From a virus (taxonomy: Duplodnaviria > Caudoviricetes), in IMG/VR virus record IMGVR_UViG_3300027833_000050, positions 1-61,681 of that record: DNA of 61,681 nucleotides. One strand, written 5' to 3'. The translations under genes and the position numbers were made by a program. The notes below the pieces were generated by a model. It was not told where the DNA came from, made no database searches, and worked only from the letters and a program-made list of their open reading frames with translations. Shown piece after piece: positions 1-5,148 of this stretch. Every line of letters starts with the position of its first letter. Position 1 is the stretch's first letter.

Positions 1-7
1 TAAACAC

Positions 8-36
8 TTGACAACTAGCTAGAATACTGTTATAAT
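8..36 (+). promoter_or_regulatory. sigma70-type (early) promoter for the tmRNA/ncRNA locus
   Basis: TTGACA (8-13), 17-nt spacer, TATAAT (31-36), preceded by TGn (extended -10). Confidence 0.9.
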
Positions 37-42
37 AGCTAC

Positions 43-370
43 TTGCAACAACATTCGTAGAAGCATAAAGTAGATTTGTTTGGACAGGGGTTCGACTCCC
101 CTCGTCTCCACCATAAGAGTATTGTAACGTCCTTAATCGGAACGAGCGTCTAACTCGTGTACAGTACTCTTATGATGGGGACGCTCTGGATTCGACAGGC
201 GAATTGAGGTTATGTGGAGAATCAGTCAATGCTAAAGACTGTAAGGGTTGGGAGTTCCCGACTAAAGAAGCTAATAAAATAATCGCAAACGATAATAATT
301 TTGCACATGGTGATTACGCCTTAGCGGCTTAATCTACCGGGGTCGGGCTCGCCTAGCAACAGAATGAGCC
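43..370 (+). ncRNA. ssrA: circularly permuted (two-piece) tmRNA: acceptor piece ~43-113, intervening segment 114-176, coding piece 177-~370
   Basis: T-arm AGGGG-TTCGACT-CCCCT (86-102) then CGTCTCC-A-CCA (103-113) lies UPSTREAM of the tmRNA 5' end GGGGACGCTCTGGATTCGAC (177-196). GGGGACG/CGTCTCC form a 7-bp acceptor stem with the G3:U70 alanine determinant. Tag frame 285-332 reads ANDNNFAHGDYALAA*. Outer ends are approximate. Confidence 0.93.
285..332 (+). other. tmRNA proteolysis tag reading frame (A)ANDNNFAHGDYALAA
   Basis: Resume codon GCA after an A/T-rich stretch (AAATAATC-GCA); AND- start and YALAA* end are typical of SsrA tags. Confidence 0.93.
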
Positions 371-380
371 ATTTTATTTT

Positions 381-520
381 AGGGTATGGTATCACCCTGA
401 CAGGATGTCAAAGCTACTTGGTACGACATACCAGACACAGGATGTGCGAAAATGTCATAACTAAAAGGAGGTGGTCTGGTTCACCACGAGCAGGATGCTT
501 AAAACGAACCACTTCTTCTA
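381..520 (+). ncRNA. putative CsrB/RsmY-like CsrA(RsmA)-binding RNA
   Basis: Three CAGGATG motifs, each in a short hairpin: TGACAGGATGTCA (398-410), CACAGGATGTG (436-446), AGCAGGATGCT (489-499). Further hairpins and AAGGA motifs lie between them; no listed ORF covers the segment. Confidence 0.6.
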
Positions 521-540
521 ATTGACGTAAGGACTATATA

Positions 541-801
541 ATGACAAATTCAATCATCATTCCATCATCTGATAAAGATGTACAACGCATCAAAGGCGCT
601 ATGAACGAAATTAGTGCATCCTATACTCGCATCGATGCCGAGCGTGATTTCATTAAAGACGCTGTTGAGTCTTTGTCTGAAGATGTTGGAATCCCCAAGA
701 AGTACCTCTCTAAGATGGCTAAAATCTTTCATAAAGAAAATGTATCCGAGTTGATCTCTGAGATCGAAGACATAGAAGCATTAATCGAAACTATTAGCTA
801 G
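541..801 (+). CDS. dsbA: T4 DsbA-like double-stranded DNA-binding protein
   Basis: 86 aa helical protein (EISASYTRIDAERDFIKDAV...IPKKYLSKMAKIFHK); T4 synteny dsbA-33-59-32. Confidence 0.7.
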   Translation: MTNSIIIPSSDKDVQRIKGAMNEISASYTRIDAERDFIKDAVESLSEDVGIPKKYLSKMAKIFHKENVSELISEIEDIEALIETIS

Positions 802-810
802 GAGACAACA

Positions 811-1020
811 ATGTCTAAATTAGTTAGCACTACATTTAAGTTGCAGGAAGACGGTAAAGCTCAAGCAATGATCTATGAAACTGACGGCGGTTGGTTGATC
901 GAGTACTATGATCCAAGAGGTAGTATGATTGCTTCGGAGAAGCATATTGGTAAGTCATTACAATGGGTTGAAGATGCTGCCGAGAACTGGGCACAAGGAA
1001 TAAAGGTGCTAAATGGGTGA
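811..1020 (+). CDS. hypothetical phage protein
   Basis: AGGAG SD, tight packing with neighbours, 69 aa. Confidence 0.75.
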   Translation: MSKLVSTTFKLQEDGKAQAMIYETDGGWLIEYYDPRGSMIASEKHIGKSLQWVEDAAENWAQGIKVLNG

Positions 1021-1267
1021 TAAAAACATTGAAGGCCTAAGAGTGATCAACCGCCTTAACTCTGAGCGCATCATGCTAGAGATAAAGAGGCACATTGATG
1101 CAGGTGTTCCATACATTGATGCAGTAGTTGAGTATGCTGAGAAAAATAGCCTTGAGATAGAAGTCTTAGGAGAGATCATTCGTAAGTCGCCTCTATTGAA
1201 AGCAAACATCTATCGTGAAGCAGAAGACTTAAATATGGTCGAGAAACTTGTGAGATTGCCTGTATGA
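1013..1267 (+). CDS. gp33: late-transcription co-activator gp33
   Basis: YIDAVVEYAEKNSLEIE..I..SPLLKANIYREAEDLN pattern; lies before gp59. Confidence 0.85.
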   Translation: MGDKNIEGLRVINRLNSERIMLEIKRHIDAGVPYIDAVVEYAEKNSLEIEVLGEIIRKSPLLKANIYREAEDLNMVEKLVRLPV

Positions 1268-1863
1268 GTTCTATGTATTCTACTAGAGATGCTTTTGAAC
1301 TCTATAGTTACTACATGGCAATCAAGAAGCATTTCACATCAACTTATGACTTTGTGAAGTATGGCGGTAAGATGAGACTTACCGTCGATGGCTTCGAAAA
1401 TAGAAAAGATAAGTTCTTTTTCTATAAACTATCTAAGAGAAAAGATGCTAAAGATTTTATTCTAGCGAATATATTGAAGAAGCCTGATCTCTGGATTGGC
1501 AACTTGATAGACAGTCACGAAGCAGATGAAGTCTATACTGAGTGGTCAAAAAGGCAACAGTCATTGACTTACACATTTAAGAATGATTTAGATGAGTTAG
1601 ACGATGACTTCAATGCCAACATTGTTGTCGAAGATGGAGAATATCCAAAACTCCTATCTCTGTTCAACAGAAGAAGGGTATGCATTGAGACATTGATTAT
1701 CATTGATGAACTCACTGGATGCTTTAAGTATTGGGAGAAGACTATTCGTGACACCATAGTTTTCCCTGATATAAATAAGACTGTTAACAACTATAAACCT
1801 TTTTTAGATTATGATAAAGTGAAAATGAAGAAAATAGTTCTTGACAAATACAGCAACACCTAG
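1264..1863 (+). CDS. gp59: helicase loader gp59
   Basis: Y..YMAIKKHFT..YDFVKYGGK, FENRKDKFFFYKL, IETLII, YKPFL motifs; synteny with gp32. Confidence 0.92.
   Translation: MSSMYSTRDAFELYSYYMAIKKHFTSTYDFVKYGGKMRLTVDGFENRKDKFFFYKLSKRKDAKDFILANILKKPDLWIGNLIDSHEADEVYTEWSKRQQSLTYTFKNDLDELDDDFNANIVVEDGEYPKLLSLFNRRRVCIETLIIIDELTGCFKYWEKTIRDTIVFPDINKTVNNYKPFLDYDKVKMKKIVLDKYSNT
1770..1777 (+). promoter_or_regulatory. T4-type late promoter inside gp59, upstream of gp32
   Basis: TATAAATA exact match about 160 nt before the gp32 start. Confidence 0.5.
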
Positions 1864-1869
1864 TATAAT
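1841..1869 (+). promoter_or_regulatory. sigma70-type promoter for gp32
   Basis: TTGACA (1841-1846), 17 nt, TATAAT (1864-1869), overlapping the gp59 stop. Confidence 0.88.
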
Positions 1870-1933
1870 ACAACGCATACGAGAAGTACTAAAATCGTAA
1901 AAACTATATAACGCATACAACGGAGAAACACCT

Positions 1934-2863
1934 ATGAGTTTTGCATCATTAAAGAAAAACCGAACATCCTCTTTTGACAAACTGAACAATCAGCTTCAGT
2001 CAATGTCTAATCAAAAAATGTCCAAAGGTGACGACAACTACTGGAAACCAGAAGTCGATAAAGCTGGCAATGGCTATGCTGTACTTCGATTCCTGCCTGC
2101 ATCTGAGAACGAAGATATGCCTTTCGTTCGCTATTGGGATCATGGCTTTCAAGGGCCAGGTGGTTGGTACATCGAGAAGTCTCTAACAACTCTAAGTCAA
2201 GAAGATCCAGTATCTGAGTATAACTCTCAGTTGTGGAACTCTGGTCATGATGAAGACAAAGAGATTGCTCGTAAGCAGAAACGCCGTCTTAGCTATGTAG
2301 CTAATGTAATGGTCGTATCTGACCCATCAAATCCTTCTCGTGAAGGTCAAGTTTATTTGTATAAATTTGGTAAGAAAATCTTCGACAAACTGAACGATGC
2401 TATGAATCCTCAGTTCGCTGATGAAGATCCAATCAACCCATTCGACTTTTGGGAAGGTGCTGACTTCAAACTAAAGATTCGTCAAGTAGAAGGCTATCGC
2501 AACTATGACAAGTCTGAGTTTGCATCACCTGCTCCTATCTCTAATTCTGAAGGTGCGCTATCTGATGAAGATATGGAAGCAACGTCGTGGAATAAACAGC
2601 ACTCCCTAGCCGAGATTGTTGATCCTAAAAACTTCAAGTCTTATGGAGAACTTAAAGCTAAACTGCACAAAGTTCTACAACTTGATGGCGGTTCACACGC
2701 ACCCAGCCCGACCGCTGAGGACAGCAATGCGGGGATGGCGTTTCAGCCTAACTTTAAAGAGCGAACTGCACCAGCAGCCGCTCAGGCTGAAGCCCCATCT
2801 CCAACCTCTTCAGAGTCAACGGATGACTCTCTTGATTTTTTCAAGAGTCTAGCTGAAGACTAG
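1934..2863 (+). CDS. gp32: single-stranded DNA-binding protein gp32
   Basis: WKPEVDKAGNGYAVLRFLP, HGFQGPGGWYIEKSLTT, YKFGKKIFDK, YRNYDKSEF; acidic C-terminal tail. Confidence 0.97.
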   Translation: MSFASLKKNRTSSFDKLNNQLQSMSNQKMSKGDDNYWKPEVDKAGNGYAVLRFLPASENEDMPFVRYWDHGFQGPGGWYIEKSLTTLSQEDPVSEYNSQLWNSGHDEDKEIARKQKRRLSYVANVMVVSDPSNPSREGQVYLYKFGKKIFDKLNDAMNPQFADEDPINPFDFWEGADFKLKIRQVEGYRNYDKSEFASPAPISNSEGALSDEDMEATSWNKQHSLAEIVDPKNFKSYGELKAKLHKVLQLDGGSHAPSPTAEDSNAGMAFQPNFKERTAPAAAQAEAPSPTSSESTDDSLDFFKSLAED

Positions 2864-2893
2864 AAGAGACAAAACTCAATATAGCGAGTTTAT

Positions 2894-2931
2894 GGGGAGA
2901 TGGAAGCCAAAAGCTGAAGTCTCCCCTTTTT
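2894..2931 (+). terminator. rho-independent terminator after gp32
   Basis: GGGGAGA (2894-2900)...TCTCCCC (2920-2926) followed by TTTTT. Confidence 0.8.
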
Positions 2932-2957
2932 ATTACACAAAGTTAATGTTAAAGGGG

Positions 2958-2985
2958 TTGACTTTCTTTCTAGCCATGATATAAT
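2958..2985 (+). promoter_or_regulatory. sigma70-type early promoter
   Basis: TTGACT, 16 nt, TGa-TATAAT; shares TATAATAGCTAC with the promoter at 8-42. Confidence 0.8.
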
Positions 2986-3035
2986 AGCTACATAAATTGA
3001 GATGAGAGAGAAAAATATGAAATGGAGGCTATAAA

Positions 3036-3507: not shown

Positions 3508-5148
3508 TTATTGAGGAACAGGTAAGTGACTGTTCATAAGTGAATTATTACCACCATTGACTATATTGAATATAGTGCTAGAGCCACCAACGCTCGTGTT
3601 ATTCGTATTATTACCGCCAGCATTTACCATCAAGTCAGGTCTCATAGGTGCACCGCCTCCGAATGCTCCACCACCTTGTGCAATTGTTTGTATATTAGCC
3701 ACTTTGGCATCCACTACTGAAGCAGGGATAGTTGTTGCTGAATCAGGGCCTTTTAGTTGTTGAGCCCTCTTTTTAGCATTCGCTCTTTGCTGTTTTCTTT
3801 TATACCCAGCCATTCCTGCTTTCCCTCGGAATACATCTTCACTAGGTTCGGGACCCTCACCCGATAGATAATCAGCTAACTCTTCTGATAATCTTTCGCC
3901 CGCAACAGAGCCAATTAATGCTCCTGCTAAACCACCAAGAATACCACCAGGTACGGCACCAACAACTGCGAAACCTGAACCAAGTGCGGCACCTGCGGAA
4001 GTACCCGCAAAACCGCCAAGTGTAGCACCACTAACAGAACCTAACGCACCCGCAATTTGCTTATTAACTTCATCGGGTGGCGCATCATTATAGATTGCCA
4101 TAAGTGGATCGATTAATGCAGGTATTACTGCCAATGCAGGCCCCGCAAACTTAAAGAACTTAGCATACTTAGCGAGAGTTGACAGTCTACCTTCTGCTTT
4201 CAACGCATCTGCTACTTGACCAGCACTTTGGAATCGACCAGTACCTGCATCAATTACTCTACCTGCTGAGTTGACTCTCATACTGCTTGGAATGTTAGCA
4301 GGTCTTGGTGTATTGCGACCACCGCCTGTCGTAGGTCTTGGTGTGCTACTTGCCGGCGAAGTCGTAGGTCTTGGTGGTCCTGACGGTGTAGGAGTCGTTG
4401 GTGGAGTCACAGTCGGTATTGACGATGGCTTGAATGCTTTCACGACTTTATTAGCTATTGCTTTAGCACCTTTTGCAATTAACATTGGAATTGCAATTCC
4501 TAATGCCCCGCCAACTGCTAAACCAATATTACTTGCCGCTTCATCACTAATAGGCAAATCTAAATCTTTCATTTTTTCAGAAAGGGCACCTGCTAAGAAG
4601 CCAGGCAATATGAGTCTTTTACTGATCAATCCACCAAGGATTGCCCAAAGTGATCCCTTGCCAGTATCATCAAACTTTAACGCAGAAGCGAATGAGTTTG
4701 AAATTACATCACCGTTCTCGTCTAGTTTTTGTTCTACTCCACCTTTAACATTTAGTGCAAATTCTTTAATCGCTGGTGCCGCTAATGCTAATCCTAAACC
4801 TTTAGCGATGGTCATAGCAAGACCACCTTTATCTTTTACGAACTGATCACCACCTTTCTTGACATTCTTAGCTGTTTCAACTGCTTTTTTACCGGCAGCC
4901 GCACCCTTTTCAGCGACTTGTTGCAGTCTAGTCTTTCTTGCGGCATCAGCGGCCGCATCAGAGGCAGCCTGAGCAGCCTCTTCTTCTGCTCTCGCCGAGT
5001 CTTCTTGAACCTTTAACTGATCTTCTTCTATACTAAGAAGTTTTGCTAAGGCACCAAATGTCTTTTCTTGGCCGTCATTGATCTGTGTCAGCAACTTGAT
5101 CATCGGATCATCTGCTGGGTTTGATGCGGGTCTGCTAGGTGGTAACAT
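3508..5148 (-). CDS. gp29-like baseplate hub / tape-measure protein
   Basis: 546 aa, Ala/Gly-rich helical with hydrophobic GxxxG segments and a Pro/Thr linker; downstream of 54-26-51; size similar to T4 gp29. Confidence 0.6.
   Translation of the reverse strand: MLPPSRPASNPADDPMIKLLTQINDGQEKTFGALAKLLSIEEDQLKVQEDSARAEEEAAQAASDAAADAARKTRLQQVAEKGAAAGKKAVETAKNVKKGGDQFVKDKGGLAMTIAKGLGLALAAPAIKEFALNVKGGVEQKLDENGDVISNSFASALKFDDTGKGSLWAILGGLISKRLILPGFLAGALSEKMKDLDLPISDEAASNIGLAVGGALGIAIPMLIAKGAKAIANKVVKAFKPSSIPTVTPPTTPTPSGPPRPTTSPASSTPRPTTGGGRNTPRPANIPSSMRVNSAGRVIDAGTGRFQSAGQVADALKAEGRLSTLAKYAKFFKFAGPALAVIPALIDPLMAIYNDAPPDEVNKQIAGALGSVSGATLGGFAGTSAGAALGSGFAVVGAVPGGILGGLAGALIGSVAGERLSEELADYLSGEGPEPSEDVFRGKAGMAGYKRKQQRANAKKRAQQLKGPDSATTIPASVVDAKVANIQTIAQGGGAFGGGAPMRPDLMVNAGGNNTNNTSVGGSSTIFNIVNGGNNSLMNSHLPVPQ

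Follow-up and report, generated by a model that had tools for sequence, protein, structure and literature searches.

Messages repressed by CsrA, with leaders of the glgC, hag and hcnA type, carry a GGA hairpin upstream and a second GGA close to the Shine-Dalgarno (SD) sequence, and CsrA bridges GGA sites that lie about 10–63 nucleotides (nt) apart. The in vivo motif of CsrA in Salmonella has been reported as AUGGA or [A/C]UGGA in apical loops (PMC5207318). The sponge RNAs CsrB/CsrC and RsmX/Y/Z consist of repeated GGA hairpins whose number varies between lineages, and CAGGATG is the commonest repeat of Escherichia coli CsrB (6 copies; 22 GGA in 369 nt). A role as Csr/Rsm sites has been proposed for the loops of the TwoAYGGAY RNAs (RF01731), which carry two hairpins with AYGGAY loops and in some variants also extra hairpins and a 3' pseudoknot (bioRxiv 10.64898/2026.09.22.753630). 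Interference of mobile elements with the Csr/Rsm pathway has been described for RsmQ, a plasmid-borne CsrA homologue (PMC9928087). In T4-like phages, a glutamine riboswitch has been published as the "3' domain" of a two-piece transfer-messenger RNA (tmRNA) in the OM43-infecting phage Melnitz, and such a riboswitch behind a two-piece tmRNA is also reported there for the pelagiphage Mosig (PMC9004378). Here we describe an RNA element at positions 374–514 of a 61,681-nt stretch of viral DNA (IMG/VR record IMGVR_UViG_3300027833_000050; hereafter the window), a 61.7-kilobase (kb) fragment with a completeness estimate of 36%. The element lies on the plus strand, as do all features below unless stated otherwise, between a two-piece tmRNA and the dsbA-33-59-32 operon. 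It is a conserved, structured module with CsrA-like GGA loops, and we tentatively read it as a protein-binding leader for which a CsrA/Rsm-type protein is the lead candidate.

Relatives were collected by pattern scans of sequence collections: through gp59, through the motif of the last tmRNA helix in viral contigs (66 stretches), and through a core pattern that leaves out the GGA hairpins in metagenome contigs (33 stretches). The core is held by 55 loci, which comprise 24 distinct full-length variants from marine viral and metagenome contigs, the window included. Permuted tmRNA genes were present at 48 of the 80 loci fetched via gp59. What follows phage tmRNAs of this type falls into 48 distinct contexts: the element in 12, another GGA-bearing spacer in 4, and in 32 a gene or terminator directly after the last helix. 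By this distribution, the element is an addition within one sub-clade. Loci L020, L021, L024 and L126, whose different GGA-bearing spacer is of uncertain homology, were excluded from the alignment and from all counts. MAFFT misplaces the GGA hairpin of three short forms, and this hairpin was counted by pattern in a script instead. A looser pattern (GGAG..TGG..TGGYYCACCAC) gave mostly chance hits among the matches listed, with only L141 new after filtering, and one extra match of the stricter core pattern (L280) was dropped as chance because it lies within a coding region and has no tmRNA. In Rfam, no family besides tmRNA matches the stretch or 8 relatives, the only other matches being chance-level ones to eukaryotic snoRNAs and miRNAs under lax filters (213 and 308 nt searched). 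The family thus appears to be undescribed and absent from Rfam.

The core common to all 24 variants consists of an A-rich stretch with AGGAG, the pairing GTGG/CCAC, the pairing TGGYYC/GRRCCA, and, within the latter helix, a GCA-(N)GGA(U)-UGC hairpin; the module ends at a conserved 3' border, ...GRRCCACTT. The long-range helix S2 (477–511), formed by TGGTTC (477–482) with GAACCA (506–511), is the best-supported part of the structure. At two of its pairs, some variants have C-G in place of T-A (19/5 and 17/7), and pairing is kept at both in 24/24. Over the alignment as a whole, 96.2% of the cells at 35 proposed pairs are paired, compared with 26.7–41.6% when the partners are slid by 1–3 columns, and 9 of the 35 pairs show changes on both sides; the observed values were reached in none of 500 shuffles. 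RNAalifold, to which the proposed structure was not supplied, predicts S2, the GGA hairpin Hd, hairpin Hb and part of an inserted hairpin, an extra covarying three-part structure that most relatives place between the GGA hairpin and the 3' strand of S2. Hairpin S1 (471–487), which pairs GTGG (471–474) with CCAC (484–487), cannot be tested by covariation because it is invariant in 24/24. The S1 loop holds the 5' strand of S2, and S1 and S2 together plausibly form a pseudoknot.

Upstream of the core, hairpin Hb (419–433), with GGTA (420–423) opposite TACC (429–432), is invariant in the 23 variants that have this part (23/23), and its loop GACA (425–428) can pair with the likewise invariant TGTC at 453–456. 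In most relatives the upstream unit consists of Hb, a GGA hairpin and AAAUGUCA, and in the window it occupies 419–456. At 465–471 follows an SD-like AAGGAGG (AAAGAGGAG in relatives) that lacks a usable start codon downstream and may pair with the CTTCT tail at 513–517; in the minimum-energy fold of the window, AGGAG is paired with this CUUCU tail in an extended hairpin, which is an alternative to the S1/S2 pseudoknot. A further hairpin, AGGGT/ACCCT (381–398; 381–385 with 394–398), appears in the centroid fold and is specific to the window, relatives having a different hairpin at this place. The shortest cores, those of L250, L271 and the window, measure 59–60 nt. A small open reading frame (ORF) across the core, with GTG or TTG starts and WFTT-like peptides, was rejected, as the insertions of relatives shift its frame and the candidate TTG reads CTG in the window.

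The window itself carries CAGGATG at 401–407, 438–444 and 491–497, and each copy forms a GGA triloop on a distinct stem of 4–5 base pairs. These are GGA hairpin 1 (398–410; TGACA-GGA-TGTCA, 398–402 with 406–410), hairpin 2 or Hc (436–446; CACA-GGA-TGTG, 436–439 with 443–446) and hairpin 3 or Hd (489–499; AGCA-GGA-TGCT, 489–492 with 496–499). Folded alone they reach -3.4, -1.6 and -3.3 kcal/mol, respectively, and are thermodynamically weak. A preliminary description, made from the letters of the window, had listed these three heptamers with GGA in the loops of hairpins with differing stems, together with two AAGGA motifs and the hairpins AGGGT..ACCCT, TGGTA..TACCA and GTGGT..ACCAC, and all of these are borne out by the sequence: AAGGA stands at 465–469 and 529–533, TGGTA/TACCA at 419–423 with 429–433, and GTGGT/ACCAC at 471–475 with 483–487. 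The same description took the differing stems for compensatory variation. The stems do differ, but this variation is among hairpins of one sequence and not at orthologous positions.

In Hd, the universal hairpin of the family, the stem GCA/TGC and the GGA are invariant in 24/24 variants, while the loop reads UGGAU (15 variants), UGGA (6), AGGAU (2) or, in the window alone, GGA. AUGGA across the top of the Hd stem and its loop is found in 21/24, and L250 reads CACGGAUG. The upstream hairpin Hc keeps its GGA in 23/23 variants on a stem and loop of varying size; relatives have GAAT-AGGA-ATTC, GAA-GAGGAA-TTC or CGAA-AAAGGAAA-TTCG at this position. Conservation of the loops in relatives, whose absence had been named beforehand as one ground for giving up the CsrA idea, was thus observed. 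Moreover, Hd is duplicated in tandem in 5 variants, with CGGAU, UGGAU or AGGAU in the loop of the second hairpin, and the window has gained one extra (third) hairpin, number 1, to which nothing corresponds in the other 23 variants and with which all three loops stand in one heptamer. Multivalency has thus evolved repeatedly. The exact heptamer is peculiar to the window, because none of the 48 related loci with a tmRNA has CAGGATG. Kissing between the loops of one molecule is unlikely, because no AUCC complement to the GGAU loops was found in the tmRNA or the element of the window and 3 relatives. Conserved and repeated unpaired loops with invariant closing pairs point to a protein that would read them. 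The five relatives with tandem hairpins also resemble TwoAYGGAY, as their AUGGAU, ACGGAU or AAGGAU (stem top plus loop) are enclosed by a basal helix. However, RF01731 gives no match at E <= 10, the window loops are CAGGAU and not AYGGAY, and TwoAYGGAY is a high-copy intergenic RNA of Pseudomonadota and Bacillota whereas the element occurs as a single copy behind a phage tmRNA.

The position of the element fits a leader. That it begins directly behind the tmRNA, as had been claimed, agrees with a search of 333–545 alone, in which the end of the alphaproteobacterial tmRNA model (alpha_tmRNA, position 355/355) aligns to 373. On the other side, the SD sequence AAGGA (529–533) and the ATG (541) of dsbA (PF11126) follow at 529–543. 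The GGA of hairpin 3 (493–495) and the GGA of this SD sequence (531–533) are 38 nt apart, so that, by sequence only, a loop GGA and a ribosome binding site (RBS) GGA stand within the bridging distance of CsrA. Two relatives distant from the window, with gp59 proteins 52–53% identical to its own, have 69–70 nt between core and ATG. The element therefore shares with CsrA-repressed leaders an upstream GGA hairpin, a second GGA near the SD sequence, A(N)GGA or AUGGA loops, and a place in an mRNA leader; it differs in its extra AGGAG without an ORF, its covarying pseudoknot-like closing helix, and its setting behind a phage tmRNA.

The element is independent of both neighbours. At L250, a locus of 11,360 nt, the core follows a protein gene and a TATAAATA box and is separated from dsbA by 70 nt; ARAGORN called no tmRNA anywhere in this locus. 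Because L250 has the core without a tmRNA, the element appears not to be a tmRNA domain. It was also observed there (L250:2811–2882) that the core follows the T4-late-promoter-like TATAAATA, which lies about 15 nt before AGGAG, in place of the tmRNA; the element would accordingly stand at the extreme 5' end of a late dsbA transcript. Among 14 loci examined, 9 have an ORF of about 0.7 kb between element and dsbA, 4 have the element directly before dsbA (69–154 nt), and in 1 no dsbA was found. In the former 9 of the 13 dsbA-containing loci, the element stays upstream at 677–914 nt from dsbA, and no second copy precedes dsbA. The nine loci with the inserted ORF therefore suggest that the element is tied to the first ORF of the operon and not to dsbA as such. 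The inserted ORF (L252, L249, L268, L272, L254, L260, L274, L262 and L263) begins MKVFEP..., MMKVSNP... or similarly and has at least two forms.

Transcription of the element together with the tmRNA, another proposal of the preliminary description, is likely, because the element lacks its own promoter and no terminator was called ahead of it. The scan called no promoter and no plus-strand terminator in 37–540, and the sole strong promoter upstream of tmRNA and element is the early-type sigma-70 promoter at 8–36 (TTGACA-17-TATAAT, 12/12 matches, with TG before the -10 box). A 3' tail rich in U is seen in some variants only, with no conserved terminator. In the window alone, the last tmRNA helix is followed by ATTTTATTTT (371–380), and relatives have no U-run there; this could act as a weak terminator, which the scan did not call because its loop is 13 nt.

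The same slot holds a different RNA in the related phage Melnitz. Its record (Kyanoviridae) gives a match of 52.8 bits to the glutamine riboswitch that starts 8 nt past the end of the tmRNA model (L277:1937–1985), in agreement with the published arrangement. Like the element, this glnA RNA (RF01739) immediately follows the last tmRNA helix, the tmRNA being of the alpha type, and lies upstream of late-transcription genes, but its sequence and fold are unrelated, and no glutamine riboswitch (RF01739 or RF01704) was matched in the window or 8 relatives. The earlier statement that a tmRNA with an attached RNA was undescribed in T4-like phages was thus too wide, given the Melnitz precedent (PMC9004378). 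Leader-type regulatory RNAs seem to find a place in the spacer that follows phage tmRNAs. Unrelated spacers of 60–190 nt were also seen in this slot in four groups of loci (L093/L118; L109/L121; L084/L098; L020/L021/L024/L126), and some of them contain hairpin-like inverted repeats when inspected by eye. In a related phage contig (L094:3415–3577), the ribosomal protein L20 leader model matches below threshold, with 34.9 bits where the gathering score is 58.7 (E = 0.003).

Several other explanations for the element have to be weighed. It is extremely improbable that the element is a functionless cluster of heptamers that arose by chance in an ordinary intergenic spacer, although counts and stability by themselves would permit this. 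CAGGATG occurs 6 times window-wide on both strands, without enrichment over the 6.62 +/- 2.40 expected (68 of 100 shuffles reach 6), and some 7-mer is found three times within 100 nt in 173 of 200 simulated windows of independent, identically distributed letters, so such a triplet is not rare. The fold is also no more stable than that of shuffled sequences (z = -0.09 for 333–545; z = -0.62 for 374–520). However, chance is contradicted by the conservation of the module over 24 variants, the compensatory changes, the invariant loops, and the changing flanking genes. The clustered copies are extended by 3, 2 and 2 extra Watson-Crick pairs and the other three copies in the window by 0, 0 and 0, and two of the three hairpins stand at positions where relatives have a GGA-loop hairpin (23/23 and 24/24 distinct variants). 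The heptamer cluster appears, because of this stem extension, to be more than chance on grounds of context and not of count. Similar hairpins (CA-N-GGAT-N-G) elsewhere in the window all lie within ORFs and give no sign of a regulon. It is very unlikely that the element is a 3' domain or trailer of the tmRNA, with pseudoknots that would stabilise the coding piece, aid its processing, or insulate the downstream mRNA after tmRNA excision. The element abuts the tmRNA in 24/24 full-length variants and stays with it despite the ORF inserted before dsbA at 9 loci, the ARAGORN call of the tmRNA reaches 423, and a ...CACTT tail follows both the last helix of minimal phage tmRNAs and the element. The helices of the element would also be arranged like pseudoknots, as those of one-piece tmRNAs are. 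These points are outweighed by the end of the alpha_tmRNA model at 373, by the 32 of 48 phage tmRNA contexts in which the element is lacking and the last helix is immediately followed by a gene or terminator, and by the core of L250, which has no tmRNA within 11.4 kb.

More serious, and still rather unlikely in our estimation, is a riboswitch-like leader that would sense a ligand, temperature or the ribosome, its pseudoknotted core serving as the sensor and the GGA loops as tertiary contacts; with the same reserve, the AGGAG/CUUCU pairing could be the switch that frees or masks the downstream RBS. The glutamine riboswitch of Melnitz in exactly the same slot speaks for such a sensor, as do the compact core of 59–60 nt (L250, L271 and the window) with its invariant unpaired nucleotides and covarying closing helix. 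Alternative pairings are available as well, namely the AGGAG/CUUCU tail of the minimum-energy fold in the window and a possible CACUUCU/AGAAGUG partner swap in L247, and the element of one relative is more stable than its shuffles (z = -2.15; 5/200). On the other hand, no known riboswitch model matches, the downstream RBS is variable and outside the conserved part, nothing in the RNA is complementary to the loops, and duplication of a loop motif with homogenisation to one heptamer is typical of protein-binding RNAs and not of aptamers. Within the protein-binding interpretation, a dedicated CsrA/RsmA sponge, as put forward in the preliminary description, is a possible but less likely form. Such a sponge would be a discrete small RNA (sRNA) cut from the early tmRNA transcript that mainly titrates host CsrA and so rewires post-transcriptional control, and we regard it as distinctly unlikely. 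The CsrA-like GGA loops on which the proposal was built are real and conserved; the hairpins carry three exact copies of the heptamer that CsrB has six times, their number has expanded in two lineages, and a 12/12 consensus promoter drives the element together with a normally abundant RNA. RNAs with AYGGAY loops have also been proposed as multivalent Csr/Rsm sponges (bioRxiv 10.64898/2026.09.22.753630). The likeness to a sponge gene finds less support. The suggested covariance search for CsrB/Rsm families found no match at E <= 10 in 1–3000 or in the short stretch 333–545, and none at E <= 1 or E <= 10 in relatives, while the E. coli CsrB control scored 380.4 bits with RF00018. The element offers 3–4 sites against 22 GGA in CsrB; the 145 nt considered in the window contain 4 GGA, 3 of them in hairpin loops, which at 2.8 per 100 nt is half the CsrB density of 6.0, and relatives have 2–6 GGA each, about 2 per 100 nt. 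Minimal members consist of one hairpin plus AGGAG. Own promoter and conserved terminator are lacking, no UvrY/GacA-type box (TGTRAG-N6-CTYACA) was found in 1–545, and some variants run into the ORF without a U-tract, so that the element lies within a polycistronic early transcript and has no discrete sRNA gene. A leader is also the better fit to the constant spacing between element and downstream start codon among distant members. A related and likewise unlikely idea is that the three CAGGAUG hairpins and AGGAGG act as a multivalent CsrA/Rsm decoy made from the strong early promoter of the tmRNA. If this were true, ribosome rescue would be supplied and CsrA control of host and phage messages lifted within minutes of infection; to our knowledge, an RNA antagonist of CsrA encoded by a phage has not been described.

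A protein-binding leader with CsrA/Rsm as the lead candidate remains the interpretation we prefer, tentatively and with somewhat less than even confidence. The alternative already mentioned in the preliminary description, a leader of the dsbA-33-59-32 operon, fits the comparative data better than a sponge. We propose that the module, lying in the untranslated spacer before the first ORF after the tmRNA, is part of the early transcript that would start at 8–36, and that a GGA-specific RNA-binding protein (a dimer of the CsrA/Rsm type, if the host has one) could bind the loops together with AGGAG or with the GGA of the downstream RBS. The bound protein would then set the translation or stability of the early dsbA-33-59-32 message, and titration of the protein may be a by-product of high early expression. 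The analysis shows the structure, its conservation, its independence of the two neighbours and the agreement of the loop motif; binding by a protein, the identity of that protein and the consequence for the downstream gene are inferred.

A number of observations weigh against this proposal. The invariant pseudoknot-like core and the covarying hairpin inserted in relatives exceed what a plain CsrA site needs and suggest a more specific fold. GGA counts barely exceed composition (4 in 145 nt; 2–6 in relatives), and the fold of the window, as noted, does not surpass its shuffles. The element is directly followed by a gene other than dsbA at 9 loci, and the RBS of that gene lacks GGA in some types (e.g., GAGAG). 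The nearest cultured phages infect Sinorhizobium or cyanobacteria and the tmRNA is of the alphaproteobacterial type, and CsrA is described as less prevalent in Pseudomonadota outside Gammaproteobacteria (PMC13443453). No csrA gene (PF02599) was found in the window and 4 related viral records, 4 of these 5 being fragments that are 30–54% complete. Evidence for expression is also slight: metatranscriptomes (four runs from four studies) contained assembled contigs of relatives only. One relative's contig from an RNA library (525 nt, depth 14) joins a match to 383–418, with 3 mismatches, to dsbA (530–867), 77 other letters replacing 111 of the window. This contig is compatible with a common transcript, but it is weak evidence, since DNA carry-over is possible. 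The RNA-library contigs leave 441–528 uncovered, and contig ends cannot reveal RNA ends.

The tmRNA upstream of the element consists of two pieces. The acceptor piece (53–113), with the T-arm, the 3' acceptor strand and CCA at 111–113, was located by ARAGORN, Rfam (RF04321) and sequence, and the Rfam permuted-tmRNA model RF04321 covers 53–332 with 106.1 bits. The segment between the pieces (114–176) forms a long imperfect hairpin, as judged from sequence and Rfam. The coding piece (177–373; ARAGORN and Rfam) encodes the tag ANDNNFAHGDYALAA* at 285–332 and ends with a helix formed by 346–351 and 365–370; ARAGORN called a permuted tmRNA with tag ANDNNFAHGDYALAA and stretched the call to 423. Helix 1 of the tmRNA shows changes on both sides in 4/4 pairs. 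The motif of the last helix, CCGGGGT-N7-11-CCTAGCAACAGAA (337–364 in the window), was found in 66 viral stretches compared with 2 in 185,579 bacterial species genomes, and the phage tmRNAs seem to be a lineage of their own. A 36-nt part of the inter-piece segment (125–160) recurs identically in very deep contigs, in four metatranscriptome contig records from three runs; these contigs have depths of 655, 195 and 1683 and flanks unlike the window. Some abundant environmental RNA shares 125–160, which could be other tmRNA precursors or something else.

The operon 3' of the element contains dsbA (PF11126, 39.1 bits), an unnamed ORF of 69 amino acids (aa), gp33 (PF16805), which is the late-transcription coactivator, gp59 (PF08993) and gp32 (PF08804); baseplate, tail and portal genes follow further along the window. 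The 69-aa ORF was considered as a partner gene specific to the element and was rejected, since it occurs not only at 54 of the 55 loci that have the element but also at 53 of 118 that lack it. Near-perfect sigma-70 promoters on the plus strand within the first 3 kb lie at 8–36 (12/12), 1841–1869 (12/12) and 2958–2985 (11/12), where they precede the tmRNA, gene 32 and the next small ORFs, respectively. Between gene 32 and the baseplate genes, an ORF of 546 aa on the minus strand (3508–5148) is rich in Ala, Gly and Pro, has a long low-complexity middle, and gave no Pfam match. The nearest cultured phages are of the Sinorhizobium phiM12-like type (gp59 41% and portal 57% identity), and marine cyanophage proteins reach about 50–62% identity in gp32 and 55% in the portal. 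In a DNA search of positions 1–1300 against cultured phages, merely T-arm matches of 47–53 nt in 3 records were obtained and no close cultured relative. Because the nearest cultured phages are distant and share no DNA over 1–1300 beyond this tRNA-like arm, the window represents an uncultured marine T4-like lineage. A gp59 search of bacterial species genomes gave 48 pattern matches, of which 0 were confirmed, and thus no relative. A metagenome-assembled genome with a CsrA gene was rejected as a clue to the host, its portal-like gene being 34% identical to that of the window and on a different contig than the stretch with the tmRNA motif. The tmRNA type and the kinship with rhizobiophages give a weak hint of an alphaproteobacterial host; the hint is weak because Melnitz has an alpha-type tmRNA yet infects OM43.

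The slot behind phage tmRNAs therefore accommodates a glutamine riboswitch in Melnitz, the GGA-hairpin module in the window, and different structured inserts in other lineages. The structure of the module is well supported, and no Rfam family matches it; its small core of 59–60 nt is open to testing, and its loops fit the best-known RNA-binding regulator of bacteria. Like RsmQ, it may represent a mobile element that seizes host translational control via the Csr/Rsm pathway, the difference being that RsmQ is a plasmid-encoded protein homologue and the present candidate an RNA ligand in a lytic-type phage. If a CsrA-type protein does bind, phages of this lineage would plug their early genes into a global translation regulator of the host, or disarm it, by RNA alone. 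If no such protein binds, the element may be a new riboswitch, or the RNA half of a new protein-RNA pair, in marine phages that are abundant.

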